A DNA stretch of 64,000 nt, taken from contig OZ076409.1 in assembly GCA_964187785.1 (NCBI GenBank), positions 2,480,001 through 2,544,000 of the forward strand. The letters run 5' to 3'. A program made the position numbers and the translations under genes. The notes under the pieces are model-generated. The model saw nothing but the letters and a program-made list of their open reading frames with translations. It was not told the origin of the DNA and ran no database searches. Positions 20,199-45,000 of this stretch are shown piece by piece (position 1 is the first letter of the stretch; the number at the start of each line of letters is the position of its first letter). Source of the stretch: Amphiscolops sp. MND2022 (lineage: Eukaryota).

Positions 20199-20200
20199 CT

Positions 20201-20449: not shown

Positions 20450-20883
20450 CTGGCCACTATCTCAGTCGACCGGTAGAAACATTTATAAAAAAGCTGCAAT
20501 GATATAGAGGTTTAAAAAATTTACTATATGTAATAAATTTCTTCGAACGCATCTGTCGCTCACAGTTCCCAGAACACAGGCCGCATTGCCGCTCTGAAGA
20601 GCCATTGAAACCTGTTGCTTCAAAAAGCTGCCGGGTCGTAAATCGTCGTGCGAACGACAGCATTTTGCAGAGACGCGTGAAAGAAAATTCACTGCTCTCG
20701 CCTAAAAAAACCTCTGTAATTCCAAGGCCACCGGTTGAAAAATGTCTCCATTGTCTATTAATTCGCGATAATTCTCAACTTTACGCGCTTCGGATTCGGT
20801 GGTTCCCGGGTTGCATAAGGAGCATCGATTGCCGTGACATCCCACACCAGCTGTTTACCCATATCCCAAGGAATCATGGTAAC

Positions 20884-21024
20884 GGATACGGGACAATTTG
20901 CCGAAACACAATTTGCTGAAAATTGACTTAGAGACAATTTGCCGAATAATTTTCGGCAAATTGTCCTTCACGTTCGGCAAATTGGGTTTCGGCGAGTAGT
21001 CTTTCGGCAAATTGTCCCGTATCC
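20884..21024. mobile_element. Short MITE (second copy at ~63001-63141)
   Basis: TIR GGATACGGGACAATTTGCCGAAA / TTTCGGCAAATTGTCCCGTATCC. Confidence 0.75.
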
Positions 21025-21485
21025 TGTTTTTGCTCCTGCGAAGCGTTTAAAATAGATTAGATACTTCTCCTCACCTAATATGGGGTCATATACGCTGTAT
21101 GCACGCTCGCCCTCACCGTCGCATATATATAAATTCTAGGAAAGAATGCCTCTATTTGCAGGCCATGATTATACAAATATATGAAATTTACAAATGATCA
21201 TGATTTCTTTGCATCAGGTGAGTTTTCGTTTTCACAAATTACAGAAACGGGACGATTTTTTGATAAAGTCCAACAGGTTAATCATATCACTATGGCTTCT
21301 TTTTCTTATTAGTTCTTCAAATGACCCAAATTTTATGTGCTCCTTTCTCAAGTTATTGTAAAAACTGCAGTAAAAATATAAAATGCGCAGACGTCTCCTC
21401 GTGATTGCAGATACAGAGTGGTGACGATGTTCTTGATAATTGGTATTGAAAGTCTCGTAGATTGCATTGGTTTGTGAGCATCTCA

Positions 21486-24400
21486 TGTAACGTCCGGCTA
21501 GCGGCGCTCATCTAGGAAAAGGGAAAATGCCTAGGGTGCTTAAACAGGAGACCGTTGTCTTAATACATCCCTAGACACTAGTTTTTCTTCCCAAAATGGT
21601 CTCCTAGGGGGACTTTTCTATCGTCTAAGGAGTCTTCTCTAGTTAGAGCTCCGAAGCGACGCGCCGGCACTCTCAAAGTCCGGACACGCCCCACAAGCCT
21701 GTAAAAACGAATCCTAGGTTCCTAATGCGTTCCTACGAGTTCCTACATGCCTCCGAGGTCAAAACAGTGATTAGCTGGAAAACATCTTATTTGGCAAATG
21801 AGATATAAAAGGACCTAGAAGGGCAAACATCTTTCAAATACCAAAGGGGAAATATGGGGATAACAAAGAAAAACGGGGATAAGCCCCAGTTACTTTACAG
21901 TTTTCAAGCCATCGTTCGAAATACGTCTCTGGCAACCCTCATCGGATGTTGTTGACTTCCACAGGAGATGGCACAACACTCCGATAGTCGCTGTTTTGAT
22001 ATTTCTCGATCTTCTTGCATTCTTTCATCATTCTCAGCATTTTTTCTAGCACGTGCTCCATTTCTTGCTCGCTCTCCGCGTGTTCTCTCTTTTCTTTCAC
22101 GCCTTTTGTACCTGCTAGATCGGCCATCTTTCTTCTTCTATTTTGACATCGCACATTTCGAATTTTTCATCGAAATTTTGGTCATGCCGGTGGCAGACGT
22201 TACATCCTCCCCGGGCCGTAGTTTGTCGTCCTCGGCAAACGAGAGGATGGTAATACCCAGAGTCTGATAGCAATGCTGAGAGTTTTCCGAACACCTTGGG
22301 AAGGTTTCATTTTTTTACTTGTTTTTTTTTAATCTCCAAATTTCCCTTTTATTTCCTCGCATTAATGTCAGTCAGTCTTACGATAACTTAAGAATTTACT
22401 CGACAAAACTAAAAGCGTGGCAGACGATTTCAAAAATTACATGTAATTCCACGAACTTAAGTTAAAATCTTTTTCTCTAGAAGGTGCTCTGGCACTTCTC
22501 TGAGTAACAAAATTCGGGTCTTGGTAACAATGGTCAATTGTTGAGTTAGGGAGTGTGGGAACTGGCTCAGGGCCCACACGCACAGCATAGTTCAACTAAA
22601 ATTCTAAGCATGTAACAAGTATTGTTCAGGAACTCAGTGTTTTACCACCAACAAAAATGAAATGATCTAGGACCATTAGGATAAAGTTGTGTTCATTTAA
22701 GGGCAAGTCCTGGTGTTCACTTAATGGACGAGTCGGCATCAGTAGCTGCTCTTTCACTCATCGTTTTGGCTTTGTTGCGAGTCCGAAACGGATGAAGTCA
22801 CTGTGGACTGCTGATTTGTTGACGATTCCGCCACCAAGGGAGGATATTGCATTGACTCGTCGATGGTGAGCAAATTTTTCAACTCTGATTCAAAATCGGC
22901 AGCGTCCATTTGCGATATTCCCGTCTCGGGTTCATCTTGGGTAGGTGTCGCGCTGTCGGACAGAATGAAGTTATCGTCCGTCATGGGTTCATCATGGGTT
23001 TCCGCGGCGATGGATGAATTCTCCTGGTCTTCTTCCATTCGAGTTTCAGTTCCTTCCGAGGATAACCCACGGGGTATTGTTTGCTGTGACCTGCCGGGGG
23101 CAGCCGCATTTGTTGCATTATTTTCTTCGGTGATATTCCCCTGTGGGAAGTCAGGCAGCTTGTCGGCCAATTCTGGGTGGCCGTATTGTATGAATAAATT
23201 TTTGAAGGTCTCAATTCCACGTGCATAGTCTTCGCCAACAGAATCCCCTCGTTCTTTTTGTTTGCTGTGTAGATTCAGGAACATTTCCAGTGCGGCGCGC
23301 GGATTGCTTGGGACATCTGTACTGATTGGCAAGGTTTTTCTATTTGGTTCTTTTGCCACTGAGGGCGTCTTGGCCTTTATGCGCTGGGATGTCTGGTGAA
23401 CAGCTAAGTCCACCAAGTCTGGTTTCGACCAGCATGTTGTTGCTTGTAATATGTTGGATGGGTGTGCGCGGGGATTGGTTCGATTACAATACATCCTTGA
23501 AGCGTCACATACGTAAGGATACCGCAACCCGGTGGGGCTTTCGCCTCGCCTTCTGCCGCCTAATCTCTGGATCACAGTGGCTAAGATCCTTAAGATCACT
23601 TCTGTGCTCCAGTCTGCAAGGGAATGCGCTGCTCCTGTCGCTGGGTTCAGAGGGATATGTAGCCATGCAATTGGGTGGAATTCCATTAGCATCGGGAGGG
23701 CGCATCGCGCACGTGCTCTTATAATAGACGTGAAGTTGTGTTCTACCTGCTTTTTGTCTTTGATGATCGTGTAGGCCATGGGCGGTCGCAGGGAACTGAA
23801 GTTGGCTACTACTCTGCGGTAGGTGGGCTCCTGTTGGATTCCATCTGTTGTTACAAAGTGTAGTATGGAGTAGGTGGGAGTATTCGCTGCCATACGTAAG
23901 ACTTGGGTCGGGTATCTTAGTGCCATGACCGCGCCAAAGACTGGCCAGACAATGGGAGCTATTAGAGGTATTAAGTCCTCTGTTTCCACCAACATGAGAG
24001 TGGCCATTTGTGAGGGAAACAAGAAACCAGGGAGTTGATTAGGTTCTCTGTTGATGGCTGGGTTTTCATCCCGGGGATGCATAATACCTGCCACATTTAC
24101 CCAAGTCGAGTAAATCCACGTGAGGATAGCTTCAATATTCAGTTCTAGTTGTTTCTTCAATCGTAGGGGACCCGCTGGGTCCAAGGCGCCTAGGATTGCT
24201 TGCAGCCAGTTCTTCTGATTTTGCGCATATACCAGGTAGCTAAAGAGCGGTAGGTTCCCTTGTCAAAGATCAGCTTCTGCAAGATGCCTGAGGGTCCTCT
24301 GTAGACTACATGCATGTCGACTGCCATTAAATAGGCCAATATTTCGCTCATGGTGGCTTGTTGCTTTGCCTCTGCGTATAGGCGTACTTGTTGGTTGTCG

Positions 24401-27400
24401 AGGTTGAATTCAGCTTGGACGAAACTAGGGAGCCAGAAGGGGGAGATATTGTAGAGGAGTACAGGGAATGGGATTCGGGGATGTGCCTGGAAGATGGCTT
24501 TTAGTTTGGAAGGTGGCTTGAATTGAGGCTGTTGCGTTGATGGTGGTCCGGTTTCGCTTTTTTGGTAAATTCGGTACCAAAATGCGCATTTTCTTCGGTC
24601 AACATTGCATCTTTTTGGAGGCTCTTAGTTTTGGGAGCACTGCTACGGCGGTTAATGCAACTCTGATAGGGGCATTGAGGGTGCTCTTTACGTGTGGAGG
24701 TTATTTTCAAGTCCTCATATGGGTTGTTTGGGAGTGAAAGGGTGCCGTCTTTTGTTCAATATTCGCAAAATCAGCGAATTTGTCGTCAATTGGCACGTCT
24801 GGGAAGGGTGAAAATCACTTCCCGGGCTCGTAGCGACTTGAAAATTTCACACCGTATACTACACTACCTGAATCGTGGGAAACTGAACGCCGATTGCGCC
24901 AAATTTGACCCTGTGGGTTTCACGGTCTTTTAACAATGTTTACTGAAAATTTGACTATGTCGTGAAATTCACAAAAAGTAGCCAAACTCGCCTTCTAGGC
25001 GTCCTAGCCACCTGAAATTTTGCATGCGAGCGTAACTTTTGCCTACGCCTAAGTAACAGAAAAACACAGCGGCGAGGTGCCTTGATCAATGTCTGGCGTT
25101 ATGAAGTGACAAAACCTTGATGTACCAGAGGTACTAGTTTTTCGGGTCAAAAATCACAAAAATGTCAATTTCTCAGCTTTGGCCAGTAGCCGGCTGCTCA
25201 AATTGCACAAATCGTCGTTATCTAGTGCCGTGCGCACGAAAATGCAAAAATTTTAGTGCTGGGATACCCGCAAGGTATTGCACTATGCTCCACTAAAATT
25301 CAAATTTTTCGACATTTTCACACGATTTTTGAGCAAAAGTGCGGCTAAGATTTCTCAATCACTAGTAATGCAAGCGCTACGAAAATTACACCACTAACGT
25401 AACTTTTTTTGGTCTACGCGATGGTGCAATCCGTTTGAGGCTGCTTCTACTAGGAAGGATTTCGACCTGTGCTGGAAGCACTACTCTATGGTTCCCAAAA
25501 TGTCGCAAAAATAACGCGTTTTCGGCTATTTCTCAGCAACCACTGGTTGGAATCACTCGCGGTTTTCTGCGTTTGTAACGTTGCACTCTATAATAACAGA
25601 AAATGGGCAAGCGAAACCTGGTAGGTTCCAAACAAGGTCTCTCAAAAAATTTTCAAATTGCATTTTTTACACTCTCGGAACAACACTGAAATAACGTGTT
25701 TTCGTCAAGAAATTCTTGTCTGTCAATTCTTGAATGTTTGAGATCAATTCAATAGTATTGTAAGGAAGTGTGACAACTTATTTTGGGGGGTTGGGGTTCG
25801 TTTAGTTATTATTTTTGATGTTGTATCTCTCAGGTCTATGAGGTCCTTTACTCAGGTCTATGTATATCAAAAGAAACAGGTCGTTAAAGTTTCAATTTCT
25901 ATTGGGGATCCTTAAAAAGCAACTTGGCAATAGTATTTCGTACTACCAAGCTAGGGAAAAGGGTTTTTGGGCTAATTTAGAAGCTTGGAAGCTAATCTCC
26001 AATGCTTTGCCCTCGTCAAATTGGGTCAAAATGGCCAAATTTGACGATTTTTCAACAAAAATCGCTGTATTTTTCGCTAATTTTGGGAAAGTGGCCCTGC
26101 GAATTTATTTGTTCCTGGCCCAGGGGGTATATTGGAACGTTTTTCTAGTATTCTCACTGGCCTTACTCTATTTGACAAAATAGTGGCTTTCAAAATTCAA
26201 AATTTTGGTATTTGAGCTATAAATGACGTTATTTTCGATGTTTTCGAGCTCAAATTTTTTTTACAACTAATCGGAATACCCTTTGGGTATTCTTCTCAGT
26301 TAGTTATAGTGGGAATAGGCCTGGAAATATTTTTTTTGGGCCTTTAAATTAAGAAAATGGACGATTTCACCCGTATGACGTGGAGTGTTGCAATTGCAGG
26401 GGCGTGGGAGGAGTAGTCGTGTAGGACGTCGTCACGTCATCACAGCTGGTGGAAACCTTCAGCATTCGTCCTCTCTGTCCCCATACATTGCAATATAGCA
26501 GAAATTAAGCTAGAAAACCCTTTAAAACACGTCCCGGATAGGACGGAACAGCTTTTTTATTAGCTTTTAGTAAGGTAGAAGGGGGTACACTGTTAGAAAC
26601 TGTTAATTTCTCTAAGTAGACCTCAGAAACATGCGGAAAACGCAGGAACAACATTAGAAGAAAGCCCAAAGGGCCAGAAAAAGGGCAAGAAAAATAATCT
26701 AGGACTCTCCCATTAGTTTTCCTAGATCTGGACCCTCCGGGACCGGAAAGCAGAAGTTGCTCCTACTTGTACGCAAAATGAAAAATATCCCTCTGTAGTC
26801 GCCATAAAAACTATTCCAGATGTAACGTCCGGCTAGCGGCGCACATCTAGGGAAAAGGAAAATGCCTAGGGTGCTTAAACAGGAGACCGTTGTCGTAATA
26901 CATCCCTAGACACTAGTTTTTCTTCCCAAAATGGTCTCCTATGGGGACTTTTCTATCGTCTAAGGAGGCTTCTCTAGTTAGAGCTCCGAAGCGACGCGCC
27001 GGCACTCTCAAAGTCCGGGCACGCCCCACAAGCCTGTAAAAAAGTATCCTAGGTTCCTAATGCGTTCCTACGAGTTCCTACATGCCTCCGAGGTCAAAAC
27101 AGTGATTAGCTGGAAAACATCTTATTTGGCAAATGAGATATAAAAGGACCTAGAAGGTCAAACATCTTTCAAATACCAAAGGGGAAATATGGTGATAACA
27201 AAGAAAAACGGGGATAAGCCCCAATTACTTTACAGTTTTCAAGCCATCGTTCAAAATACGTCTCTGGCAATCCTCATCGGATGTTGCTGACTTCCACAGG
27301 AGATGGCACAACACTCCGATAGTCGCTGTTTTGATATTTCTTGATCTTCTTGCATTCTTTCATCATTCTCTGCATTTTTTCTAGCACGTGCTCCATTTCT

Positions 27401-27539
27401 TGCTCGCTCTCCGCGTGTTCTCTCTTTTATTTCACGCCTTTTGTACCTGCTAGGTCGGCCATCTTTTTTCTTCTATTTTGACATCGCACATTTCGAATTT
27501 TTCATCGAAATTTTGGTCATGCCGGTGGCAGACGTTACA
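21486..27539 (-). mobile_element. LTR element A, non-autonomous, 6054 bp
   Basis: 719-bp direct repeats 21486-22204 and 26821-27539 with TGTAAC...GTTACA ends (~20 substitutions by eye); minus-strand PBS 26788-26804 and PPT 22205-22215; TCA/TCA flanks; no gag or pol motifs. Confidence 0.92.
22754..24184 (-). CDS. Orphan ORF inside LTR element A (476 aa; probably extends upstream to ~24500 across a frameshift)
   Basis: Long open frame, sense to the element; hydrophobic/globular N-half and acidic low-complexity C-tail; no recognised motif. Confidence 0.65.
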   Translation of the reverse strand: MDPAGPLRLKKQLELNIEAILTWIYSTWVNVAGIMHPRDENPAINREPNQLPGFLFPSQMATLMLVETEDLIPLIAPIVWPVFGAVMALRYPTQVLRMAANTPTYSILHFVTTDGIQQEPTYRRVVANFSSLRPPMAYTIIKDKKQVEHNFTSIIRARARCALPMLMEFHPIAWLHIPLNPATGAAHSLADWSTEVILRILATVIQRLGGRRRGESPTGLRYPYVCDASRMYCNRTNPRAHPSNILQATTCWSKPDLVDLAVHQTSQRIKAKTPSVAKEPNRKTLPISTDVPSNPRAALEMFLNLHSKQKERGDSVGEDYARGIETFKNLFIQYGHPELADKLPDFPQGNITEENNATNAAAPGRSQQTIPRGLSSEGTETRMEEDQENSSIAAETHDEPMTDDNFILSDSATPTQDEPETGISQMDAADFESELKNLLTIDESMQYPPLVAESSTNQQSTVTSSVSDSQQSQNDE

Positions 27540-28413
27540 TCAATTATCAATTTGGTAGCATGTTTGCTGAAAGATCTTGGTATCGAAGGTTCTGTCGATT
27601 CTATTTGAGGGAATTCTGGCAATATATGTAACGGCAAGCTCTGGTACAGCAATATCAACCGATTTTGCAACTTTGACATGTTCAGAAATTTTGTCAAAAA
27701 TTCTAATCCGATGTGTGACGTGGCACTGAGCATGTGATTGCTCTTTTCGCTGTTTCCACAAAATTGGCAGGTACTTCGACAACAAAGAGCAAGAACGAGC
27801 AAAAACACGGGCGCGCCGCCATGACAGAAGCCAGAGACGGCAAGAACATCCGAAAAAAGACTCTTTTTGAGGTGCTAACACCGGTTTTATCGATTTTCAG
27901 CCTTATGCTACCCTATGTAGCGGAAACCGTAAAAATGAGTCTTTTCGCCTAAAGATCCTTGTTTGGTGCTTGGAGCCCCTGCGCCCCAGCTTTTTAGCTG
28001 TGTGGTTTGCCATATTCGTGCCTGTTTTCATGTATTTTCAGTGATTTTGGCTGTATTCAGTAGCGCTAGCGCTAGTTTAGATCTTATTTCCCAATTTTAG
28101 ATCTTATTCACATGTCACCCTGGAACTAGAAATTTACCTTATTCTTGGCATTGTTTTTATATGCTAGTTAAGCGGTGGTCTTTAGAGAGTCAGAAAGATG
28201 CCCGTTACTATTAGCAATCAAAGACTAGGACCGGTTGGACAGTATTCGTCGAAGCACCCGCGGCCCCGGGACGTATTTCACCCTGGAAGCAAAATGGATC
28301 TGTGGCGATGGGCGCCTGTCCCGAGCGATTCACCCATTCCTGCAGGTTCCTCCACCTCTTTTAACGCGTTAAGTGACCGATCACTGCTTGCCGTTACATG
28401 AGACCTCATTTTT

Positions 28414-28430
28414 TGGCGACCGCAGAGGGA
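28414..28430 (+). other. Primer-binding site, probably for tRNA-Arg
   Basis: TGGCGACCGCAGAGGGA is complementary to a ...GCGGTCGCCA tRNA 3' end as in animal tRNA-Arg(TCG); element A has TGGCGACTACAGAGGGA. Confidence 0.65.
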
Positions 28431-30149
28431 TCGCTTCCGATTACTGCCCTATTATATGGTTTTGAAATTTCCGACCCCCTGGTATTGGACGCCAAGAACG
28501 ATTGGACTCTGGAAGGAGACGTTTACCCAGAGTTTTTCCAAATTATTAGATGTTATGACGTTGTATTTTGGTGTTTTTCTAGTCTTTCGGGGGATTTTTC
28601 CGAATACCTATGGTATGTTTTGATAACAGGTATTTGTTGACAGGTATCGTCTAAAATTGCACGTTCCCATCAGCGGGTACCTTTGTAATGGCTTAGCGAA
28701 CCGCTAGAAAGCCGTTACGCATGTTGTAACAGGTGTTTTACATCTCATTTCAGCGTTTTTGGCTATGTACCAGGTATTCAGTTGATGGATGCCCCACGTT
28801 CCATCTGACCGATAGATGAGCTGAAACGAGTGTTCCCGACTCTCCTTTCCCATTTCCCGTGGAGACGTGCTAGAAGCATGGTTTTTAGTGGAAAGCTAGA
28901 ACAAACACTGACGTTGCCGGCGGTCCAAATTGTTTCTCTTTGGCTGGTCTGGTTGTTGAGAAAAAAGACGGCGAAAGTACCACCCCTCATTCCGCAAGAA
29001 TCGGTTTTTGGAATATGGTATGAAAAAATTTTTAGATTGTGTATTTTTTGACGGGGAATCATTTGTGCATGCTAGTTGTACCCTGTTGCAACTAAGTGTG
29101 TGCTTTTGAACCTGTTTTTAGTGAAAAAAGTGCAATTTTTAGTGCAAAAGTTGCAAAAACGTGATTTTTGGCATTTTTGAGTACTTTTCTTGGTACGAGC
29201 GCGAGCGCTCGAAGTATTAGCCACAGCAGTTGCAAAATGAATAGAAAGCAGCCCAAAACCTTGAGGGTTATGCTACATAATGTAACGACAACCAGAAAGG
29301 CCGTTGGAGACCTTTTTGAGACACATTTTGCATGACAAAACCCGGTTTTTGGCGAAATTGGCAAAAAACCACTATGAAATGACACTGGGAGAGTGCTGGA
29401 TTGTGATATAATTGCCTCTTCCGTGCTGCTATTAGTTTGGGGCACACTCCACAGTACCGAAAACAGGATTAGATTTAAGAGAGCTTGTAACGTTTTCTTG
29501 GTGAGAAGAGGTCGAAAAACCTTGATTTTTGGCCAGTTTCAGGAGTGCCAGAGTGCATAAGTAAAACCTCTGGGGCACTCAGTGTTTTCGAGACCTGGGA
29601 GCCAGCGCGCTCTCATTTTCTGTTTTTGTAGTAAAAGTAACGCATTGTGGTGAAAACCGCGTGTAAAAACTCCCATTCAGTGCTGAGAAAAGTGGAAAAA
29701 CGCACTGAATTTGATCAATTTTCCACAAAACCGGACTGTCTCTGAGCTAGGATCGGGTCATCGATTCCTGAACCCTAGCCAAAAAGTGGTTGAATTTTCG
29801 TAACCACCACAAAAATTAACGTTAGTACCGAAAATTTGGTGAGCGTATCGGTCACCAAAGTCGAGAAAAGCTCTCTGACGTTTCGACTTCAGAGAAGCGT
29901 AAGAGGACCGAAAAAATCCAAAACTGCAGGACTGTCAGTGCCTTATACCCAACGGGCAAAACCAATTGAGGGTTTATTCCAGTGCTACGGATAGTGGGGC
30001 AACACGTTGGTCCCATTTTGCCCGCCGTATCACTTTCTGAGGTGATCCTCTTGGTCAATTTGTGAAAAAAGTCGTCAAAAACACTGTTTTTTTTGTGTAC
30101 AACGTAAATAGTGGGTCGAAACCTCAAATAAGCGCTCGCGCTTCAATTC

Positions 30150-32150
30150 GACCATTTTAGTGGCATTGTAGGTGCCCATTGGCATAAACTACTAAGTTTG
30201 GTGCCGATCTGTGTGATACTTGTTGAGAAAATAGGAAAAACGTGGCACCCAAAAAAGTGCGCAAAAAGGCAGTTTTTTCTTAATTTTTCCAAGTAACCCG
30301 GGCACCTTAGCTGACGGGTGGGGCTATATTGCAGCCCACCATTGTAACCTGTGCTAAGTCCTACGTTGCTGCAGAGAATTTGAGCTTGCTAGCTCCTTCC
30401 AGTGGACCGCAATCTTGAAAAAGACGTGAAAAACAGTGTATTTTGGTACATAGTGGTACCGCACGTCTGTACCTAGGTGAAACTGTGTAGAAGGGGCGCA
30501 GCTCAATTCTGTAATCTTTTTCGTAAACCTACGTGTACCTAAAATCTGCTGGTCAATTGTGGGCTTGATACAGCGCTTCCAGCGTTCACACGAGCCTCTT
30601 GAGTGTTGTGGTGCGATTTTTGGAAAACCCAAAAATTCTTTGAAATTCTTCCTGTGGGTGACTGGAGACTTTTTGCCCTAGACCAGGTTGAGTTTCTGGC
30701 CCAGTGTGCTTGTGGGAAAGCGCTGTGCAAATTTGAACAGCCTACGAGGCTTAGAACGTGTTTTGAAAAATCTTGGACGTTGAAAAAAAATCAATTTTCT
30801 TAAGTCCTCACTGAGACGAGCAGAGGTCCAAATCCTTGAGAAGACCCCCTGCAAGCCTACCACCGTCTATTTTACTACTCTAACAGCGTGATTGGTGCCT
30901 ATTGACAGCGTCTGCCAAGTTTGGTGTCAATTGCTACTATATCTGTTGAGAAATTGACTAAAACAAACTGAACAAGAAGGTGCGCAAGAAGGCGAATTCT
31001 ACGAAGTCTTCTGGGATTGCCTGAACACCTTATTCAAAGAGTGGGGCCAAATTGCTGCCCACCATCGTAACCAGTGCAAGTTTATCGTATTGTTGCCGAA
31101 AAAACGAGCGTGAGCGTTCTTTGCAGTTCGCCACAATCTGGGTTGACACGTGAAGAACAGTGCATATTGGAACACAGTGATATCGAACGTCGTTACTGTG
31201 TTGAATTTTCACCTAGTCACCTCAGCACAAATCAGCTATCACTCCCTTGTACCTCAACTTACGTGGGATTGTTTGGTTGATTTTGAAGTCGATCCTGCGT
31301 TTCCAGCGTTAGCGCTAGCCTCGAGTTTTTTTTTCTAGTGAAGCTGAAAAACCCAAAAAATATCTGGAAAACCTCTGACCTGTGACTGGATCGTAATACC
31401 CCGATTCTGGACTCAATTATTGGGTCAGTGCATCAATCCGGAAATGCTGTTTACCTTCCAGCACGTTACAACCCTTGGAACTAGTTTTGACTCTTCTTGG
31501 ACGTGCATATTCATTGTATCAGTTTAAGGTTTCACCGAGACGAAAACTGGGAAAGTGAGGAAAAAGTCATTTCTACGTGTTGGAAACCTGTGGAAACCCC
31601 TAGTTTGAACTCCCAGTAGTTCGTTCATTGCTGTGCGTGTGATATTTGATCAGTATCGAGTGGGCTGCCTTGCTGGATCATAGCATTTTGTTACTTGAAG
31701 TTGTGATATCCTGTGTATTGTAACGAATTGGATCATTTTTTGGAACTCTCGGCGCACCTTATTGGAAGTTGGGATTACATTGCCCTGGACTATTCTTATA
31801 AGTGTCATTTGGTGCACCGTTGCTGAAAAAGTGAGCTCGAGAGCTCAGCACTGTGGACGAGAGTCTTTGATTGCATGTGAAAAATCGTGTCAATCGAGAC
31901 ACGGTGATACGGAACGTCAGTATCAGATCTAAATCTTGCCCAGTGGTCTGAATTCTCATTGGTTGTTACTGTAGTGTAGCTGGCTATACGTGTGATCGCG
32001 TGACCAATTTTGAGCCCGATACCACGTTTCCAGCACTTGTAAAAGCCATTTGAGTGATTTTCGAAAACAGTTGAAAAATCCAAAAATCGTTGAAAAAGGC
32101 TCTAGCTTGGAGCTGGAGGCAATCATCAGCTACGGTAGGTTATTTTTCTG
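30150..32150 (+). repeat. Three diverged ~725-bp tandem units in the leader of element B
   Basis: CACCTTA anchors near 30303, 31026 and 31754, each followed by similar blocks; the ORF track shows matching peptides (TDVRYHYVP / NDVRYHCVP / TDVPYHRVS). Confidence 0.7.
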
Positions 32151-32928
32151 ACTTGTGCGGCTGACGAAACGTGCTGTGTCAATTTTTACCCAGTACGATT
32201 GATAAAACTGAATTTGACTCAGTTCAGACACACGTCTTGAACAAAATTCCAAAAAACGCCAGAAAAACTATCAGTGTAAACCTTCAATACTTCCGCTGTA
32301 CAGGAGGCAAACCCAAAAAACCTTCATTTTCCAACGGAAGGGACCCAATAGACCTTCCTGGGTGCAAACGAGGCAAATCCCACGGTTCAAAAAAATTGCC
32401 GGCAGGGGTCATAAATTTTGGACTCCTCTAGAACTTTGAAATTTGATCCTGAACAGTTCAAGGCAGCAGTTTTAAGTGCCTGCGACGCACTCTGGACTAC
32501 ATTTTTACATTTTTCCGAACGAAAATCTCTGGGAGTTACCTTGAGCAGGGTTTTCGATATCCAAAAGAGACCCTGAGTGTTCCGACTTAGCCAAAATCAC
32601 GAGATTTTGAGAGGAGCAACTTTCTAGTGACAATAATTTGACCGGATTGCCCGAGTGTGTCACCTTTTTGAACGCTCTGGTGCCTCATTTTGGTGTTATT
32701 CCGCTGTATCGAGTAGCATCAACGCCGAATTTTACGCCAAATTTGCAGAGAGCTCTTTTGGATAATTGCAAAATACCCAAATCTCTTGAGGATGAGAGGT
32801 CGACAAACCGCTCAACTGTCTGTTTGGTGCGCTGTATCCAACTTGGCTGCAGCAATCTGCTCTAGAGCAAAATTTTCTAGTCCACTGAGCAGTCTGCAGA
32901 GTGTTGAGCAGTTTTCAGCACGCTGTGA

Positions 32929-34404
32929 TTGCTAGAAATTCTCTTGACTTGGACCCTGACACTGAACTTGGGTACACAGGTTGTTCTAGTGATGCAGTTC
33001 GGAACCTCTAAAGCTAAAATTAAACATGGGAAAATCTCCCGCCGCCTCCGTTCCTTTTTTCAAGGGGGAAGGAGTGTCAGTGCAGCACAACCAATGGATG
33101 TTCATGATGTTCAACCTCAAAATGAATCCCAAATGGTAGATGAACATGACCGATCGACGAAGTTAGATGATTTGAACGTGAAAGATTGGCCTTTGGAGGA
33201 TAGTTTCAAACCTGTCTCCAATTTTCTAGACTCAATGCCATCTAACTCTCAGGATACCGAGCCGGAGAGGAGCATAAGGACTCCCAGTCCTTGTTCAGTA
33301 TCGTCGTCGAAAAGATCTCTCCATGAAACCAGTATTCAGATTTATCAGAAACAGGACCAACAATTAAAGGCCCTGGAGCAGCAGATGGATGAGATGTCAA
33401 TCTTTTTGGCACAAGGCACACTTCGCAGGGAGAAACTGCTAGCACAAATGCAGTCGATAAATGCAGAAGTACAGGCACAACTCACAAATGCCGATATCAA
33501 TGTTTCAAACGACGTCAAATCAGAACCATTGACACCGCCAACAAAAGACATCGGCGTGGACCCAATATCTTTGGACACTACAACCATGGGTATTGCTGAC
33601 ACTTTGCCTGAATATCGCGCCGGTGATAATGGGTTGCGCGAGCGCAACTTCTACTCAAGTGATACGAAGAATGAACGAATATCTATCTCATCCTCCATTT
33701 CCTTATCGCAGGATTCTTTAAGCAACTCTCACTTCCCTGGAACAAAGTCCCTATTATCAACTACGAAGTTGCTACCGAGTTTGCTGAAAGACTCTTTTGA
33801 GCCACATTCTGCTACATCTAACGCTGGAATGAAACCTTCGGAAAAATTCCAACGCCTCTGCTTCCTTTTGAAGGGGGGAGAGGGCACCAGCGCAGCACAA
33901 CCAATCGATGAACCGGCCTCGATATCTTCGAACAACGCAACCATGGGCATGGCTCACACGTCGCCTATGGATCGAGGCGGGTTGCTCGAGGACAATCATG
34001 GTACTGATGACCCAAAAGACGAATTGATATCTCCCAAACAGTTGAAATTCACGGAGAGGATTTCCAAAACTATAGCTAAAGAGTTGGCTCCCTTGATTGC
34101 CAATCGTGATCAAACCGCTGTTCGACCAACCTTATACAGAGGTTCGAAAGACGGGACTGTTGAAGAGTGGTTGCTCGTGATGAAACGGTATTTGAAGCGA
34201 GTTTTTTCGAATGCTTCACCTGTCGACAAAGTCTGGGCGATAATCGATCACTTAGGTGATGAAGCTCGGAGTTTTATAATCAACAAACCGGAGTCCGAAT
34301 GGGATTCTCACGAGAAGGTGACTACCTTGCTCTCCAGCAGATTTGGGACTGGGAGTAACCGCAGGCTTTCAGGTTGCGAAGTCAACTTGAAAGAGAGGAC
34401 CTGA
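32929..34404 (+). CDS. gag: Gag-like N-terminal part of the element B polyprotein
   Basis: Coiled-coil stretch, then capsid-like YRGSKDGTVEEWLLVMKRYL...LGDEARSF...W...LSSRFG; continues in the next frame (QAFRLRSQ..EDLMQYLDAL). Confidence 0.8.
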   Translation: MLEILLTWTLTLNLGTQVVLVMQFGTSKAKIKHGKISRRLRSFFQGGRSVSAAQPMDVHDVQPQNESQMVDEHDRSTKLDDLNVKDWPLEDSFKPVSNFLDSMPSNSQDTEPERSIRTPSPCSVSSSKRSLHETSIQIYQKQDQQLKALEQQMDEMSIFLAQGTLRREKLLAQMQSINAEVQAQLTNADINVSNDVKSEPLTPPTKDIGVDPISLDTTTMGIADTLPEYRAGDNGLRERNFYSSDTKNERISISSSISLSQDSLSNSHFPGTKSLLSTTKLLPSLLKDSFEPHSATSNAGMKPSEKFQRLCFLLKGGEGTSAAQPIDEPASISSNNATMGMAHTSPMDRGGLLEDNHGTDDPKDELISPKQLKFTERISKTIAKELAPLIANRDQTAVRPTLYRGSKDGTVEEWLLVMKRYLKRVFSNASPVDKVWAIIDHLGDEARSFIINKPESEWDSHEKVTTLLSSRFGTGSNRRLSGCEVNLKERT

Positions 34405-37400
34405 TGCAGTATCTAGATGCACTAGAGGGTCTGAGGAGTCAGGGTTTTCCTGATGAGCCTATCACTACCCGACGCTATGAAATCTTGCATCGGTTCATGG
34501 ACGGGGTCAGCGATCCCGTGTTGCAACGAGAACTGACGGTGGTAGTTGCGACAGAGGCGCATTTAGCCGACCCACCTACCGTGGAGTCACTTCGGTTCAC
34601 AGTACAGGAACTCCAAAGGAGTCGTCACCAACAACAGCCTCGTGACCCAGGGTGCACCGACACTGTACCTTACCAGTGTCTACAGAGCGACCAAGTGCCG
34701 GGGTCACCAATGGCTCCGCAGCATGGATCGCTGCCACCCCTTGCACGCCGGTCGGCACGATTGCCGATGCCGCCTGCGTCTGTACACACAACCCCCGAAT
34801 ACAGACAGACCGCAACCTTAGAGCAATCCGCGCGCTGCTTGCAGAGTGCTTGCGCGAGACGCAAGCTGGTGGTGCATCGCCCGGAGCATATTCTTGACCC
34901 ACATAGTGAGTCCCAGCAAGGTGCTGCAGCAGCGGTTCCAGCGCCTGCTGTCCCAGTGAAATCGTGCACAACTGAGGTGTCTGCAGGTTGTCCAACATTA
35001 TCAATCCAGTCAGAAACTTCCAGCCCTAGGACTGAAGAAAAGAAGAAAACGGATGCAACGCAAACACTGTCTACTGCCTCTGGCAGGGTATTAATGCTAC
35101 GCCCAGCTGACCAAGCCACCGTAAATGCTCCATTGACTGTCACCTGTGGCACAAAGCAGGTGCAGACAGGTTTGGAGTCCACAACGTTTGACCCTAGTGA
35201 CCGGACTTTATTGTCTGTACACCTAGTGCTGGCCTCGGAGCAACAAATACGCCCAGATTTGACTTTGGAAAAATTGAAGCTGGAGTTAGCTAGCAATTCG
35301 GCTGTCAAAAAGATCTCCTTACCACTGCCAAAAGAATGGTATACTGAAGGCGAAGCTAGTACGTGCACGGCATACACCCCAGTTCCTGTGCATGCCAACA
35401 TAGATGGCGTGGACATGAAATTTGATGGTAGCGTGGTAGTAGATGTGTTCCCTCAAGGAGTGTGCCTAGGGCCACATGAATTACGCTGCTATAGCATCAG
35501 CAAGCAAGAGCCCACAGGTGAGGCCCGCATAGATGAGCGTGCGTCGCTCGTGGTATCTTTCGCAGTGCAAAATGCTAACCCTATTCCACTGAGAGGAATG
35601 GTCGACACGGGGTCAGGCGTATCAATCATGAGTTTCTCAGCCTTCAACCGTGTAGCCTTGCGGACAGGTGTAGCGCTACAACCTTATCGAATCGACTTGT
35701 ATGCTGCTAATGGGAAGACGATAAAAACGCTTGGAATAGCGGAGCGCGTGCGCTTCCAACTTGGTGGATATGAACTCGAAACAAATTTCGTGGTCGTTGA
35801 TGACGCACATGGCTTGGAAGATTTCTTGCTGGGTAGGAATTTTCTGCGAGCATACAACGTGCTGGTAGATCTGACCTCCATGAAAATAGTGGTGCGAGCC
35901 CCGGCTAAGCCCGTGTGGCATCACGCACACGCCCAGACGAGCGATGAAACTTTATCTAGTACAGTAATTTTGGATCAAGACGTGGTGCTACAGCCATTCG
36001 AGCGTGCTGTTCTACGTGCCAAGGTGGTCACTTCGAACTTGGAAGCTTTTGCTTTCAGTAATGTTGTGATTAACTTTGCAACACCGAACCGATTGCTGAA
36101 GAACACTATATTCGTGGAAGACACTATAGCCACTGTTGGAGAGACAGGTTCGTTCTATGTCTCTGTTGGCAATCTGACAAGCAATGCCCAGAAAGTGAAG
36201 TGCGGCACCATGTTTGGTACTGATGCGCCAGTACGCCTAGTCTACCATGCAGTTCCCCAATGCGCGCTAGCGCACAAAGGCAAAAATGACGAAAAATTGG
36301 ATTTCCCAAATGAGTTTGTCAACAGGGTCTACTCTGAAATGGACCTGAACTCGCATTCAAAGTGTTCGTCGTCGTCGGAGTTCGAGTTTCTCTCCTCTAC
36401 AGACCCATCGGAGGAGGGGTTGTCAGAGCGCGAGATCAGAAAACGGACTGACCCTGATCTCTTGGCCCCTATTCCTGGACCCGAATCTCAGTTAGAGGAG
36501 GTACAAAAGTTGTGGGGGAAGACTGCCCGCGACTCGCTGAACAACATCCTTACGGAATTTGATGACCTATTCAAAGCAGACATTGGTCGCTGCACAATAG
36601 CCAAGCATCCTGTTGAGTTGGAGCCTGGGGCTACACCGCACCGTGAAGGCGCGAGAAGAATGTCGCCTGACAAGGCGGAGCGCGCCAATCAAGAAGTACG
36701 CAATCTCTTGGCTTTGGGCATGATCCAACCTTCGCTATCACCTTGGGCGAGTGGAATTGTGATGGTAAAAAATAAAAATGGGGAGTTGCGATTCTGCTGC
36801 GACTTTCGCCCCCTCAACGCTGTCACAATAAAGGACGCGTATCCCCTCCCACGCATCGATGAAAACCTTTCACGCTTGGGTAAGGCCAAGATTTACACTA
36901 GCATTGATTTGGCCTGGGCTTTCTGGCAGATACCAGTCCGCAAAGCAGATAGGCAGAAAACGGCCTTTGCTTGCGAGCTGGGTTTGTTTGAATGGAGACG
37001 TATGCCTTTTGGGATGTGTAACGCTTCAGCTACTTTCCAGCGAGCCATAGCGCGAGCGCTACGGAAAATTGTGAACCGGGAAGGAAGCATGGTGATGGCG
37101 TACATTGGCGACATCGTCATTGCTACCGAGACAGTCGAGGACCACATGGTACGCTTACGCGAGGTATTTGAATGTCTGCGCGAAGCTGGCTTCAAAATGA
37201 GAGTCGCTAAGTGCGACTTTATGAAGTCGGAAATCAAGTACCTGGGACGTGTGGTCTCTGCCGAAGGTATCAAACCTGATCCTAAAGCAGTGGCAAAACT
37301 ACGCGATTGGGAAGTACCGAGGAACAAAACAGAAATGCAAAGCTTTTTGGGCTTCGCTAACTATTATCGAGAGTTCATTCCTTGGCATGCCAAACTTGTG

Positions 37401-38630
37401 GCCCCCTTGCATGCTATTACCGGCCTGGGCGTGATTTTCGCCTGGGGGAATGAGCAGCAACAGGTTTTCAACGCCGTCAAATTGGCTTTGATCGAGGCAA
37501 CTGCCTTGGCGCAACCGGACTCGGAGGACGAATTTGTGCTGGACACTAATGCCAGTGCTGTTGCAATTTCCGGCATTTTGCATCAGTGGCAGGGTCCTCC
37601 GGGCGAAAGGCGCCTGAGACCAATTGTGTATGGTAGCAAGAAGTTGAATGCCACTCAAGCGAATTATGGCGCTCCCAAGCTTGAAATGTACGCAGCTTAT
37701 TATTTCATCTTGAAGAATCACAGTTATCTCTGCTCCAGAAAGTTCATCCTTCGGGTTGACAATCAAGCTCTCTCTTGGCTCAAAACGTATTCCACTGATC
37801 AGGCCTTGATTGGACGATGGATTATGGCATTCGAGAAGTACCATTTCAAAGTGGAGCATCGTCCCAGGACACAGCATAGGAATGCCAATGGCCTCAGTAA
37901 ACGAACCAATGATTATCGATGGCGAGAGAAGCAGCTCGAGAAGCTGCCAGTTGTGACGGACAAATGGAATTTCCTCTCACAGGAGGAGTTTGACCAGCTG
38001 CCCGTTGCACCTTGGTTCGATTTGCATGGTCGGGTGATACCCAATCACCCCCAATTGCCCGCTCACTTGCGGAACACTAAACCAGACCCCACAAATGCAG
38101 TTTGTCGTGTTGCACGACGACGTAAGCGCCGTCAGGCCGCTGAGAAGAGGGAGAGTGCGCTACGCGCTCCTCTACCTGAGGCACTAGTGCCTACATTGCA
38201 AACTCACGAAGACTTCTATCCAGATTATCATGAGGACTGGATTGACGTCACTGAAGAGGCTAGGCAAGATTACTTGCTGCCTACACATGTGGCAAATATC
38301 CCCTCACGCATGACATATGCCCTTGACGAAACAGTGGAGCAAGCCGTGGCTTCCGCTCCAACGGTGGTTAGGCAAGCTGCCCTAGCCATCAAAGACATAG
38401 ACACGGAACTTCATGAACATGCCAACACGGTGCATGGCATCAAGGATCTGCTTTTGGCACAGAATCGTGATGTGCATGTGCTAGCCATAATGAAGTTGGT
38501 AGCACAAGAGTCTATTGATCATGACATTTTTCCTGAAGACGTGCGTGCGTTCGCGCGTAACTATTACAAGCAGAAAAAAGATCTCCTGTTTAAAAAAAAA
38601 AACAAAAATGGAATTTTTTGTGTAGGGTAA
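34374..38630 (+). pseudogene. pol: Gag C-terminus, protease, RT and RNase H of element B, with catalytic substitutions
   Basis: PR VDTGSG...FLLGRNFL; RT SPWASGIV, LRFCCDFRPLN, YPLPRID, MPFGMCNA, YIGD (expected YIDD); RH DTNAS and NANGLS (expected Asp in both). Confidence 0.93.
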
Positions 38631-39720
38631 CCACCTCAGCAACGTCCATTGCACGAACGTCCGTGCATGATTGTAATGCCACAATTGTACCAGCATGAAA
38701 TTTTGTTTCGTGCTCATGATGCCATGGGCCACCAAGGCATTACAAAGGTGGTTTCGCGAATCCAAGAACGCCACACCTGGCCAGGTATTCGCCGCAGCGT
38801 TGGTCAGTACGTGAGTCAGTGCCTCACGTGCCAGCAAGTACGTGACAGGCCGGGTGACGTTCGGTTTCACTTGAAAAATATCCAAAGTGGGTACTTCAAT
38901 GAGCTGGTCCAGTATGACCATCTGAAAATATGCCCCTCCGATAACAATAACACCGGCATATTGGTGGTAATTGACCATTTCTCCAAGTGTACCCTGCAGC
39001 CATTAGGATTACGATGCAGTGGCCACGTCTAGGTTGCTTTTGCAGAAATGGTTTGCCAGACACGGCACGCCTACGCGGATGCAGTCAGATAATGCCCCCA
39101 ACTTGACTGCAGAGGTATCCAATGAGTTCATGAGGGCATCTCAGGTCACAAAAGTTACCTCTAAGGCGGGACATCCGCGCACCCAAGGCCTGGTTGAACG
39201 ACAAAATCGGACTTTGCTGACTTTGTTGGGGGTATTTTGCTCGCGTCGCATGAGAGATTGGGACCAGCATTTGGATGAAGTCATGGGAGCGCATAACTCA
39301 ACGCGCCATGCTACGACTGGGTTTTTACCCTACATGCTGACCCGAGGGACCGAAAAGGCTATTCCTCTCACCTACCTGTATCCGGAGTTCGCAGCCAGAT
39401 CATTTGAATCTGTCTGTCCATATTTGAATCTGTCCATATGTGGAGCATATTCTTGCTCGCCAGCAAGAGATTCATGACTTGGTGCGTAGAAACACGCATC
39501 AGGCGCAACAACGTCAAAAGCTAAAATATGATCGAGCTATTCGTGCAAACGCATACAATGTGGGAGACCCCGTTTGGGTATTCTGCCGCTATGTACCTCA
39601 AAAAGGATCACCGAAGTTGATGAGAGCTTGGCGTGGTCCGCACAAGGTTGTCCATGTACTACAAGATGGCCGCGTCTAAATCCTGGACTCAGGACAAAAA
39701 GTGCACTTTGAGCGGCTGAA
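38631..39720 (+). pseudogene. Integrase of element B (frameshifted)
   Basis: HHCC (HDAMGH...CLTC), DDE (YDH, SDNA, GLVER), GPY/F-like WRGPHKV...VHFERLK; stop at 39677 and several indels. Confidence 0.92.
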
Positions 39721-42054
39721 AACTCAACCTGGTGGCCCTACGGAGTTTGTTGCGCTTCCCTCGGGGAGTGGCGAAGTGGTTGTTGTCATGGATCCTGAGC
39801 CTGAGCACTCTGCTGAGGAGATCCCAGACGACTGCTCACAACCCTCATATCGCGAGGAAGAACCGCTCTCTGAAGCATCAGATGTATTGCTACCATCAAG
39901 GAGACGCCACTGGATGGACACCAGGTTGCGTACTAGAATGCGAGCTGGAGGCAGTCGTCTCCACTATCAGCAATTTGACTATTCCAGTTCCGACTCAGAG
40001 CGTTCGCGCTCTGACGACTTGCTGTCAGATGCCCGAGATCATTCCCAGGAGGAACCTCCGGCGCTATTCGAAGCTTCAATGCCTCTCGATGAACAACCTC
40101 GGTCATTTGAACCTGAAGTTATTCTCGGTCATTTGAAGTTATTCCGGAAGTACCTCAATCGCAAGATATTCCCGTTGCAACTGGAGAAGCCGAAGTATCA
40201 CTAGCGGGTACATCTGCTCCTCTGTTGACAAATCCTACATTGACGGATGTGCCTATTAGTATTCCTCAATTGCCGAATGGTACCTCCAACCTCCAAAACA
40301 CTGAAACCCGTAACACCGAGTTATCCAACACCAACGAGCCAACTGCTCGGAACAATGTCCCTAGCACGCGTGGCAGGGGCAGATCGCAAGCTGCTTTATC
40401 TCGTTGTTCGACACGAGCAACAAAGTCCCGGTCGCAGAACGTGAGCGTGCGCGCTCAAAGGACTCCCAGTCGCAGAGGACGTCCTCGAGGACGACCTCCT
40501 CGGAGGCCACGAGGACACACTATTTCTTCACGGCAAACAGCTCGTGAAAATGACACACAGCCATCAATTACATCCGATTCTGACTCTGATGCGCCCACCG
40601 CGCAGCTTACATCCGATGTTGACCAAGGCGCAACGCAGGTTAACCCACACTATGGCTTACGCCGGAATCGAGTACCTCGATATCGATGTGGAACCTGTGG
40701 GTTCCGCGATTGCACTTGTGTCATGGCTCTGAACAAATCGCCCACTATCCCACTTGGACCTGTGAAAGCTCCGGTGGATCCAAAGCCTCAACCTTTTATC
40801 CACAATGGTAAGCTTCTTGTCAGTCGCGTTGTCATCCGCGCAGAGAAGACATACACCGGTCTAGAACGAGAACGTATCTTCCCTGTAGACGTCGTGCTGG
40901 AAGAATTATCTAAATCCAAGATTGCTGAGGAACCTTGTCCTCGCTTCAAAGAGTGGACCAGCGATCTCCGCGGATTGGAATTCACACTTGCCGTCACAGT
41001 GCCTCCTGTCACTCCTAACATTGTATTTGGACCTTTCAATTATGAGAGGGAACCCATCCAAATGGTCCGCTGTATCACCGCTGACCTCCTATCTGACAAA
41101 TACGGCATCACCTGTCAGCCTGGTGAAGTGTATCGCCCAGCCCAATATTGGTGGTTGCTTGTAACTGCCCCACATGCTCACTCTTTGGTCCAGCCTGACA
41201 GCTTGCGGAGCTGTCTAAAGAGTTTGCGGACTGTTGTCTTTGAGGAACTCATTTTGTGCTTCCACATCGTTGATCTTTATCGTGGAAAACTACGGTTCCG
41301 ATTGTGGCTAGAGCTGATTATCACTTTGTTCGCCAGCTTCCTTCGTATCCGCCTTTTGGATGATTGGACCCATTCCTTCACCGAGCCTGTAACGATCCAC
41401 ACTGCACTTGGTACCCTGGATTCATGGTCAACAGCAAATGTGGATAATCAGTCTCTGTCGAGGTCCGTATGGCAGGATCTATCTGCTATTCGTGGACAGA
41501 ACCATATAGACCCAGCTGATGAAAAAGGTCCCGGACGTCAGATTGTGTTTCCTGGTGCCCTACGACCAAATTTGATCGACTACATTGTTTACGACCAAAC
41601 TGATTTCTTGCAGGTGCAGGGCCACGTAGCAATTTGCTGCCCTGCAGACCTTAATACCAATTCTGCTGCCTTGCGCTACATTCTTCGCGAGTGTGGCAGC
41701 GACAAAATATTCCAACTTCGCCCACCAGTTGGTGAAGTCCTAACTCTCCCATCCTCATTGTCTTTTATAGATAGTCAGGTTCTTCACCTAATGATAACAC
41801 GCCCCTCCCAGCGTTCACCACAAATCACCGATGACTTTTTCTTATGCTTGGAGCACTTGAAAGCTTCATTATTGTCCAACGAAACCCCTGATATTCATTT
41901 CCCCATAGTGGACCCTGAACGCCCACTTCGCAGTTTGGACAATTTTTTTCATAGTGTCATGGACGTTTTTGCAGGAACTGATATCACTGTATTTCTGCAT
42001 GATCGCGTCTATGTCTCCATTGCCAGTTTTGAACAATTTCCTGGCATCACTTAG
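39701..42054 (+). CDS. C-terminal extension of element B Pol: acidic linker, AT-hook-like RGRP motifs, Cys cluster, two TARG1-like macrodomain segments
   Basis: ORFs 39701-40204 and 40225-42054 join in frame when the 20-bp duplication 40124-40143 is removed; by-eye alignment to OARD1/TARG1. Confidence 0.7.
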
Positions 42055-45000
42055 CTTCAACGTAAAAGTTTCTATTTGCTATCCTGATATCTCATGCTAA
42101 ATACGCGTTGCTGGTTACCTTGTGGTAGCGTGCGTTGAAATCCATTGCCAGAACCACACTCCACTTCTTTTCAAGGGGGAAGGGGTGTCTTCAACGCCCA
42201 ATTCATCCTCTAGCATTTTCTTTGCATTTTTTGTTAGTCATTGCTATCTTATTATTAATGAAGGTGCTCAACTATCAAAGCCCGGGGAGCCCCACTGCAA
42301 TAAAAAAACCCAAAAACTCTCCATGTATTGCTACGCCCGAAAGGTGCTATTTTTGTTTTTTTTTCAAGACTTCCAGAAGTTTCCTCCAGATTCCAATGTG
42401 ATATCCGGAGAAATAAGGAGCGCGCGCGCTCCTGATCTGCAAATGGTCACTTTTGATCTACCTTTGTCTGCTTTACTCCAGTGCTTACTCTTACGAGCAG
42501 TTCGTAGTTTGCTTCTGATGCGCTCCTTGACAGATGCTACTGAACTCTATACAGGTATGGAGCTGCACATCAGTGCGTGTTGCCCAAACCAATCCGAACT
42601 GTAAAAAATAAAGTATCAAAGAAACAGCTTGTCTTCCTTTTAAACAGTGGTTTTACTGCTGAAAAGAACTTTTAGCGAAAAGAACTTTTAACCGTGCTGC
42701 AAACCGAAATTTTATTGCCGTGGAAAAGATGTTTTTCATGAGAACCACGTGCGCTTTGGAGCGTGAGCGCTCCGCAAAAAAAAGTTTAGACGTCCAAAAA
42801 CCAAAGTGCTAGCAGGATCCCATTCAGACTTTTGCAGAAAACTCGTGCTAAAAAAGTGGTGCTTTTTTGATTGATGTATGGAATCTTGGATTTGATCAAT
42901 TTCAAGGTGCATTTTTGAGTACTGGTTTTCTAGCTCTCGAGCTAGCTCTGTTTCAACAGTTTGTGGACGATGCAGGTTCTCTGGATGGCAAGAAGCAAGA
43001 CCTCATGGTTGCCCAATCAGCAAAAGATGACAGTGCCACTGGACCGTTGCAACATCACCAGTTTGAGATCCCCGTGGATTGCACTCATGATGTGGCGATG
43101 TGTTCAATGCCAGCTTCTCCGCATGACAGGGACGTCATGCATAAAGCCCGGGGAGTGATGTAACGGCAAGCTCTGGTACAGCAATATCAACCGATTTTGC
43201 TACTTTGACATGTTCAGAAATTTTGTCAAAAATTCTAATCCGATGTGTGACGTGGCACTGAGCATGTGATTGCTCTTTTAGCTGTTTCCACGAAATTGGC
43301 AGGTACTTCGACAACAACGAGCAAGAACGAGCAAAAACACGGGCGCGCCGCCACAACAAAAGCCAGAGACGGCAAGAACATCCGAAAATAGACTCTTTTT
43401 GAGGTGCTAACACCGGTTTTATCGATTTTCAGCATTATGCTACCCTATGTAGCGGAAACCGTAAAAATGAGTCTTTTCGCCTAAAGATCCTTGTTTAGTG
43501 CTTGGAACCCCTGCGCCCCAGCTTTTTAGCTGTGTGGTTTGCCATATTCGTGCCTGTTTTCATGTATTTTCAGTGATTTTGGCTGTATTCAGTAGCGCTA
43601 GCGCTAGTTTAGATCTTATTTCCCAATTTTAGATCTTATTCACATGTCACCCTGGAACTGGAAATTTACCTTATTCTTGGCATTGTTTTTATATGCTAGT
43701 TAAGCGGTGGTCTTTAGAGAGTCAGAAAGATGCCCGTTACTATTAGCAATCAAAGACTAGGACCGGTTGGACAGTATTCGTCGAAGCACACGCGGCCCCG
43801 GGACGTATTTCACCCTGGAGGCAAAATGGATCTGTGGCGATGGGCGCCTGTCCCGAGCGATTCGCCCCTTCCTGCAGGTTCCTCCACCTCTGTTAACGCG
43901 TTAAGCGACCGATAACTGCTTGCCGTTACAATATTTCTCAATCGGCGATTCCATAATTCGATTCTATAGTGTTCACAGATTCGTTTTTAGTATTTTTCAC
44001 CCAGTGCGATACCTGAAAATCTTGCAAAACCTCGGAGGCTGGATTGTAGTGACCTCCATACTTTGCTATCGGAGTCTGATAAGGCTCTTGAACACTGGTC
44101 AGAGTCAAAACCGTTTTTATGGGCAAATTTAGCTTGTCATAATTGAATCTCAAGATCGATTGGAAATTGACTACATATGTATTCCATTTTGGTGAGCTCG
44201 TGTTTGTATTTGGTATTTGAAGATTTCGATAATATCTTGTACCATAAGCTGCTTGTTCTGAATGCAGTGGGATTGGCCCAAATATGACTCAAGTATGTCC
44301 ACACGGGGATCACCACGCAATTCATAAGTTTCAAAATGGTGGAAGGCGTGATGAATTGATTCTGTACAAGAGGTTCCAAAACTCCCATGGCTTTTTCTGC
44401 TTTTCTTGAACATTTCCCGAATTGTGCTCGAGAATTCAAATTGTTATCGATTGTGATACCGAGCGCTGTTGACTCTGTCGCGAACTTTATTGTGTCTCCT
44501 TGCAACACTATATTTTTTGTAGGTTCTCGGATTTCTTCACGGATACTTGAAAAGATGACAACTTCTGTTTTCGGCCCCGAGATTTTAAGACGCCACTTTC
44601 CAACCCATTTTGTAATTTCTTCGCAATCTTTTTGATTATGCGACAGAGCTTCTTCTATCGAGTCAGCTGCTGAAACATGTGTGGCGTCGTCAGCGTACTT
44701 TTCAAATTTACCTTTGAATTCTTGGAACATTTCTGCAAGGTAAAAGATAAATAAGATTGGGGAGAGAATGCTTCCTTGAGGGAGGCCAACTTCTAGCTTG
44801 AAGCTTTCTGATCGGTTCTCGCCTATTTCGATGTAAACGTTTCTGTTTCGGAGATAATGGTCAATGATGTTCAAAATGTAGCTGTTTATTCCTGCTTCAC
44901 GCAGTTTATACATGAGACCGTCAATCCAAATCGAGTCGAATGCTTTCTCGAGGTCGATGAAAAGGGCAGCCGCAACTTTTCCTTGCTCAATAATATTTTG

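Follow-up and report, generated by a model that had tools for sequence, protein, structure and literature searches.

Several retroelements carry a domain of the SGNH/GDSL esterase fold as an accessory cargo. The Vesta long terminal repeat (LTR) retrotransposons of bdelloid rotifers contain a GDSL/SGNH open reading frame (ORF3, 1.3-kb amplicons) with intact S-G-N-H residues and no transmembrane segment, for which a role in membrane passage has been proposed, activity being left undemonstrated, and Athena-L elements carry catalytically dead GDSL derivatives (PMC5408684). The esterase domains of ZfL2-1 ORF1p and of the ORF1 proteins of L2, CR1 and RTEX elements (PDB 4C1B) have an active triad, and lipid binding that needs no catalysis has been modelled for them (PMC3905857). 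Ngaro elements have an SGNH hydrolase ORF of unproven function at their 3' end (PMC9210276), and the OSK domain of the host gene product Oskar (PDB 5A4A) is an SGNH fold without the triad, its Ser replaced by Asp, which is used for binding and binds RNA (PMC10792757). The capture of ORFs 3' of pol has been reviewed (PMC6431247); accessory proteins of other kinds include Drosophila sORF2, a short transmembrane protein for env-independent transfer (PMC11952523), and CERV of Caenorhabditis elegans Cer1, a non-env protein for RNA export (PMC10309623). Here we analyzed a 64,000-nucleotide stretch of the Amphiscolops sp. MND2022 assembly (contig OZ076409.1, positions 2,480,001 to 2,544,000; the window), in which an LTR retrotransposon, element A, contains the remnant of an accessory gene whose intact relatives encode an SGNH-fold protein.

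Element A occupies 21486-27539 (6,054 bp) on the minus strand, and its two LTRs differ by 20 substitutions and no gaps over 719 bp. Together with a primer-binding site (PBS)-like motif, for which we presume tRNA-Arg to be the primer, and a short polypurine tract, these bear out the original prediction, made from the sequence alone, of an accessory cargo frame running sense to an LTR element. We consider it probable, at about 0.7, that element A arose from a Gypsy-lineage element by internal deletion and that this frame (22754-24262) represents the final 41% of the accessory gene. The frame has 502 codons from stop to stop and ends 549 nucleotides before the 3' LTR; when the internal region of element A was base-shuffled 200 times, the maximum was 193 codons and the mean 119. 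The 476 codons first reported are those counted from a TTG at 24184. Of two peptides initially quoted as upstream frames, the first belongs to this same frame, 26 codons further, and only the second lies in another (24256-24474, 73 codons). About 573 codons thus survive of an original of about 1,380 amino acids, well above the 580 or more residues estimated earlier, and 59% of the gene has been deleted; the loss takes in the entire SGNH domain and extends through the third helix of a helical domain. The first Met codon of the frame (24082) lies past that helical domain, upstream of the most conserved block of the family. The leader from the 5' LTR to the first homologous codon is 2.3 kb, close to the 2 kb originally proposed, and matches no protein of the accessory family. 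Pfam, PHROGs and NCBIfam gave no family for the main frame, and neither gag nor pol was found inside element A among its open frames or in the element analysis, in agreement with the reported lack of protease, reverse transcriptase (RT), integrase and zinc-knuckle signatures.

The deletion is recent, because two sister proteins (P0084 and P0078), 93-98% identical to the frame in the overlap, still have the upstream part. The peptide of element A upstream of the junction was present in none of 65 proteins with the junction motif, although the frame contains no Met before the junction, so that gene callers would miss such copies. The LTR divergence corresponds to about 1.4% change per copy, at which 0.9 stops are expected and the chance of zero stops in 502 codons is 0.40; selection is therefore not needed to explain the open length. 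Very probably, no functional protein comes from this copy, which is in decay. Its deletion, its frameshift and an open length expected under neutral decay all contradict the earlier view that it retains its cargo.

The gene is not the orphan that had been proposed. Homologue searches returned 84 clusters in one case and 202 representatives at E ≤ 0.001 in another, and with 353 proteins fetched, the predicted conservation of the frame across copies without a Gag or Env match was confirmed. All family clusters with a shown source are unnamed ENA proteins, and 11 family clusters hold 1,154 member sequences, fragments counted. Frames of 1,277-1,429 amino acids were found in 15 of the 353 proteins, a count that leaves out the internally duplicated P0263, whose 1,402-residue frame consists of two tandem copies of the C-terminal half of the family protein and stems either from internal duplication in frame or from an artefact of assembly. 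The closest full-length relative of the frame is P0320 (1,382 amino acids). In a tree of 20 core regions, the window frame groups with P0320, P0001 and P0002 (95/96), this group is nested among several subfamilies 47-65% apart, and P0273/P0350, P0297 and P0303 are distant lineages on long branches. The P0273 and P0297 groups are on contigs shorter than 15 kb and the close groups on contigs of up to 1.3 Mb, which suggests that family members derive from more than one assembly. At every distance within the family, the folded parts are more identical than the linkers, and this, together with the long open frames, points to lasting selection on the intact gene.

The reference for element A is its neighbor, element B, a 16.3-kb Gypsy element of the same lineage with a 5-bp target-site duplication (one mismatch). 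The two elements have in common the LTR end hexamers and a 10-nucleotide word around the purine tract, and the PBS-like motif of element B is near-identical to that of element A at nearly equal spacing. Furthermore, 25375-25605 of element A resembles the element B leader at 29614-29845 (61% over 242 nucleotides) at an equal offset from the LTR, and long leaders seem typical of this lineage. Element B lacks the accessory gene of element A and has an unrelated ORF in the corresponding slot. This frame of 645 codons (40117-42054, plus strand), 3' of the integrase and with a Cys cluster, was blank in Pfam, PDB sequence, PHROGs and NCBIfam searches and is a second unusual cargo in the lineage; by eye, two stretches of it resemble macrodomains of the TARG1/OARD1 type. 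The order of the genes is indicated by P0079, in which an RT with 71% identity to that of element B reads in frame into the end of a family SGNH domain, with the junction at a tripeptide that both parts contain. A deletion at microhomology would leave such a junction in an element where the accessory gene follows pol. The accessory gene is therefore likely to have its normal place in the env position, 3' of pol. Given the order in P0079 and the 549 nucleotides between the gene end and the 3' LTR, the simplest parent is a Gypsy element of the size of element B with the gene in the env slot, from which element A would have lost the leader end, gag-pol and 809 codons.

Several observations weigh against this reading. 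The flanks of element A differ where a target-site duplication of 4-6 bp was looked for, the PBS search pattern was written from the two sites that it found, and the score of the leader similarity, 28, exceeds only slightly the maximum of 25 in 100 block shuffles. The relatives of the gene are represented by protein sequences, and the link to pol consists of a single chimeric protein out of 353. It belongs to another subfamily (its best match to a family member is at 72%) and could be the product of helper-satellite recombination or of misassembly.

In the intact protein of about 1,380 residues, a small N-terminal domain and a long disordered linker precede an SGNH/GDSL domain (about 470-665), which is followed by a helical domain (about 765-940), a conserved block (940-1100), more helices and an acidic tail. 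The N-terminal domain (residues ~35-125), conserved in P0320, P0265, P0268, P0273 and P0297 ahead of the disordered linker, has 48-89% identity among close subfamilies; by eye it consists of two helices followed by beta strands, and it lies outside both predicted models. Structure prediction and Foldseek, as the original prediction had proposed, identified the SGNH alpha/beta fold in the intact protein, which fits its suggestion of a captured enzyme, and gave no match for the helical domain, a candidate new fold. The ZfL2-1 esterase domain was the Foldseek match of rank 5 (probability 0.72, E 0.085). The Asp-Ser of block I (42 of 44) and the Asn of block III (19 of 19) persist across 25% identity; in alignment A3, the block I Ser is found in 17/17 and the block III Asn in 19/19. 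In block II, 8 of 10 aligned long members have Cys and two have Gly, in a register set by sequence only, the Cys being found in the close families and in P0297. At the canonical His position of block V, 55 of 56 true matches have Arg, and the Asp three residues before is absent. The approximately 480 C-terminal residues matched nothing in Pfam, PDB or BFVD. The highly conserved block 940-1100 bears a proline-rich hydrophobic segment, with a hydrophobic peak of 1.6-2.3 at the 19-mer site in all six proteins tested, which is possibly membrane-inserting. An Env C-terminal transmembrane anchor was rejected, since the proteins share no hydrophobic peak but this one, which lies within the chain some 400 residues before its end, and have an acidic tail; no fusogen fold was matched in BFVD or PDB with a model of mean predicted local distance difference test (pLDDT) score 60.

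We tentatively propose, at somewhat less than even odds, that the intact protein is a non-catalytic membrane adaptor. With Arg replacing His, the pocket of the pseudo-esterase would bind the head group of an anionic lipid, and the hydrophobic segment would enter the bilayer. The helical and disordered regions would keep the ribonucleoprotein (RNP) or particle of the element at the membrane, to be assembled, transported or passed from cell to cell. It is quite doubtful that this extends to a full envelope substitute, in which a Ser/Asn/Arg lipid reader and a membrane-inserting helical new fold, kept since lineages diverged to 25% identity, would carry Gypsy particles across membranes or between cells and might ride on satellites of their own that lack gag-pol and serve helpers in trans. 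All steps of the membrane proposal are inferred, and the hydrophobic segment could instead be a buried core helix. Both predicted models have a mean pLDDT of 60, with the conserved hydrophobic block among the poorly modelled parts, and the block V position was set by motif spacing, DSSP and TesA numbering (PMC10792757). In addition, a His occurs two residues after the Arg in P0297 and five residues before it in the P0273 and P0297 families.

Alternatively, by analogy with Oskar, the SGNH pseudo-enzyme might bind RNA and export, localise or shield the genomic RNA in a CERV/Rev-like or anti-silencing role. Besides the precedents of an RNA-binding SGNH-fold domain without triad (PMC10792757) and of an LTR element whose accessory protein serves export (PMC10309623), the invariant Arg and the mildly basic residues 131-665 (net +12) suit a phosphate ligand, and the long disordered regions suit RNP granules. 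However, the family keeps the oxyanion-site Ser and Asn where Oskar lost the Ser, the ZfL2-1 esterase did not bind oligo-A RNA (PMC3905857), and a conserved hydrophobic segment is not expected in a soluble export factor, which together make this role possible but somewhat unlikely.

A different view of the element itself, which we regard as unlikely, is that the intact gene is the sole gene of a satellite LTR family that borrows Gag-Pol from helpers resembling element B. The family may then supply the helpers with its protein in trans, and element A would have lost only part of the leader and the front of the gene. The absence of any gag or pol trace in element A, the great abundance of the family, the single pol fusion among 353 proteins, the completeness of element B without the gene, and the location of distant full-length members on contigs of 4.6-9.1 kb, too short to show neighbors, all speak for this view. 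In contrast, P0079 joins RT and gene in the 5'-to-3' order of one element, the distance to the 3' LTR is that of the usual ORF3 position, and element B has another ORF in that slot.

It is improbable, on the sequence motifs, that the SGNH domain is an active non-canonical acyl-esterase or acyl-transferase that would modify lipids, glycans or host proteins with a Ser nucleophile and a His from elsewhere or a substrate-assisted base. The conserved block I Asp-Ser and block III Asn, the nearby His residues in distant families and the chimeric triads across chains known in the SGNH fold, for instance in the ZfL2-1 esterase (PMC10792757), would allow it, but no His column is at least 90% conserved in either family alignment, and the Arg of block V and the Cys of block II replace canonical residues. 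Finally, despite its 502 open codons and the most conserved block downstream of Met 24082, the surviving frame is very improbably a retained functional cargo translated from that Met, such as a scaffold or the divergent capsid suggested originally, because the first three helices of the helical domain are deleted and the Met lies beyond that domain, a frameshift splits the remnant, neutral decay explains the open length, and hhalign to the element B Gag gave a probability of 0.1. Structure searches with a 549-residue model of mean pLDDT 60 returned no capsid row. No CCHC zinc knuckle or Gag Pfam family was found in the frame or the long members, a weak negative since the Gag of element B also escapes Pfam.

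Table 1. Positions in the window of the features of elements A and B and of the repeated host exon
Feature	Position	Strand	Remarks
5' LTR of A	26821..27539	-	719 bp, TG...CA ends, short terminal inverted repeat; 97.2% identical to 21486-22204
PBS-like motif of A	26788..26804	-	16 nt inside 5' LTR edge
Leader remnant of A	24478..26787	-	sense strand without frame >85 codons up to junction
Deletion junction	24475..24478	-	family homology starts abruptly at residue 810 of 1,382-aa P0320
Upstream gene piece	24256..24474	-	73 codons = P0320 residues 810-882, 85%; middle of helical domain
Single frameshift between the two gene pieces	24256..24262	-	real or assembly error
Main open frame	22754..24262	-	502 codons stop-to-stop; P0320 residues 881-1382, 85% identity; first Met codon 61 (24082)
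Conserved proline-rich hydrophobic 19-mer	23918..23974	-	Kyte-Doolittle mean 2.2; inside most conserved block of the family
Acidic C-terminal tail, predicted disordered	22757..23146	-	net charge -26 in P0320
Short polypurine tract of A	22205..22212	-	directly against 3' LTR
3' LTR of A	21486..22204	-	719 bp
Element B	27627..43930	+	16.3-kb Gypsy element: protease, RT, RNase H, integrase; reference for A
PBS-like motif of B	28414-28430	+	near-identical to that of A, at nearly equal spacing
Leader of B	28399-32928	+	~4.5 kb before gag, without long sense frame
ArfGAP-exon repeat copies	20106-21123, 48681-49223, 53724-54265, 58767-59141, 62217-63240		96-98% identity

Elements A and B lie back to back, 5' end to 5' end, with an 87-bp gap (27540-27626). 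Some 1.3 kb downstream of them, at ~18.4-20.2 kb of the window, is an ArfGAP gene of the SMAP type that is split by introns (one exon matched SMAP1B, E 7e-24) and that marks the window as eukaryotic and its host as probably an animal. An exon of this gene and its upstream DNA are repeated in each unit of a ~5-kb tandem array at 96-98% identity, the units also containing fragments of long interspersed nuclear elements (LINEs) and a palindromic element; the array is either a recent local duplication of part of the host gene or a misassembly. Many frameshifts were seen in the pol of element B and in the LINE copies of the window, transitions and transversions are equally frequent in the LTR pairs (10:10 in A, 10:9 in B), and some frameshifts or substitutions may reflect errors in the assembly consensus.

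Taken alone, the locus is an unremarkable deletion copy in decay, and the family that it belongs to carries more weight. The cargo in the env slot of LTR retrotransposons is varied, and the Vesta report leaves activity of the SGNH cargo undemonstrated (PMC5408684). Here, an abundant and long-conserved family retains the nucleophile half of the site, shows Arg where the base would be and carries about 480 residues unmatched in Pfam, PDB and BFVD; since natural intact members exist, lipid binding, RNA binding and catalysis can be tested directly against each other. No description of the family was found in the literature searched, although Repbase, supplements and subscription papers outside it may hold one.

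In comparison with known systems, the family has in common with Vesta that an LTR retrotransposon carries an accessory ORF of SGNH fold, here probably likewise in the env position, but differs in its ~4.1-kb gene, the Arg of block V, the fusion to the unmatched C-terminal residues and the conserved hydrophobic segment. A Vesta-type GDSL ORF3 was ruled out on the Arg and on the ~1,380 amino acids, as opposed to a small ORF3 with S-G-N-H (PMC5408684). ZfL2-1 is likewise a retroelement-borne SGNH fold, but in a non-LTR element, in the ORF1 position, with an active triad, a coiled coil and a much smaller protein. Ngaro elements also have an extra SGNH ORF at the 3' end, but membership of element A in Ngaro/DIRS was ruled out by its plain direct LTRs, PBS and purine tract, in contrast to the split or inverted repeats and tyrosine recombinase of those elements. 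The Oskar OSK domain was not among the listed top structural matches of the family SGNH domain, and the likeness to sORF2 and CERV would be functional only, by analogy. The family resembles known SGNH retroelement cargo in kind, and differs from it by the failed test for a catalytic His, by its size and by its large unmatched C-terminal part.
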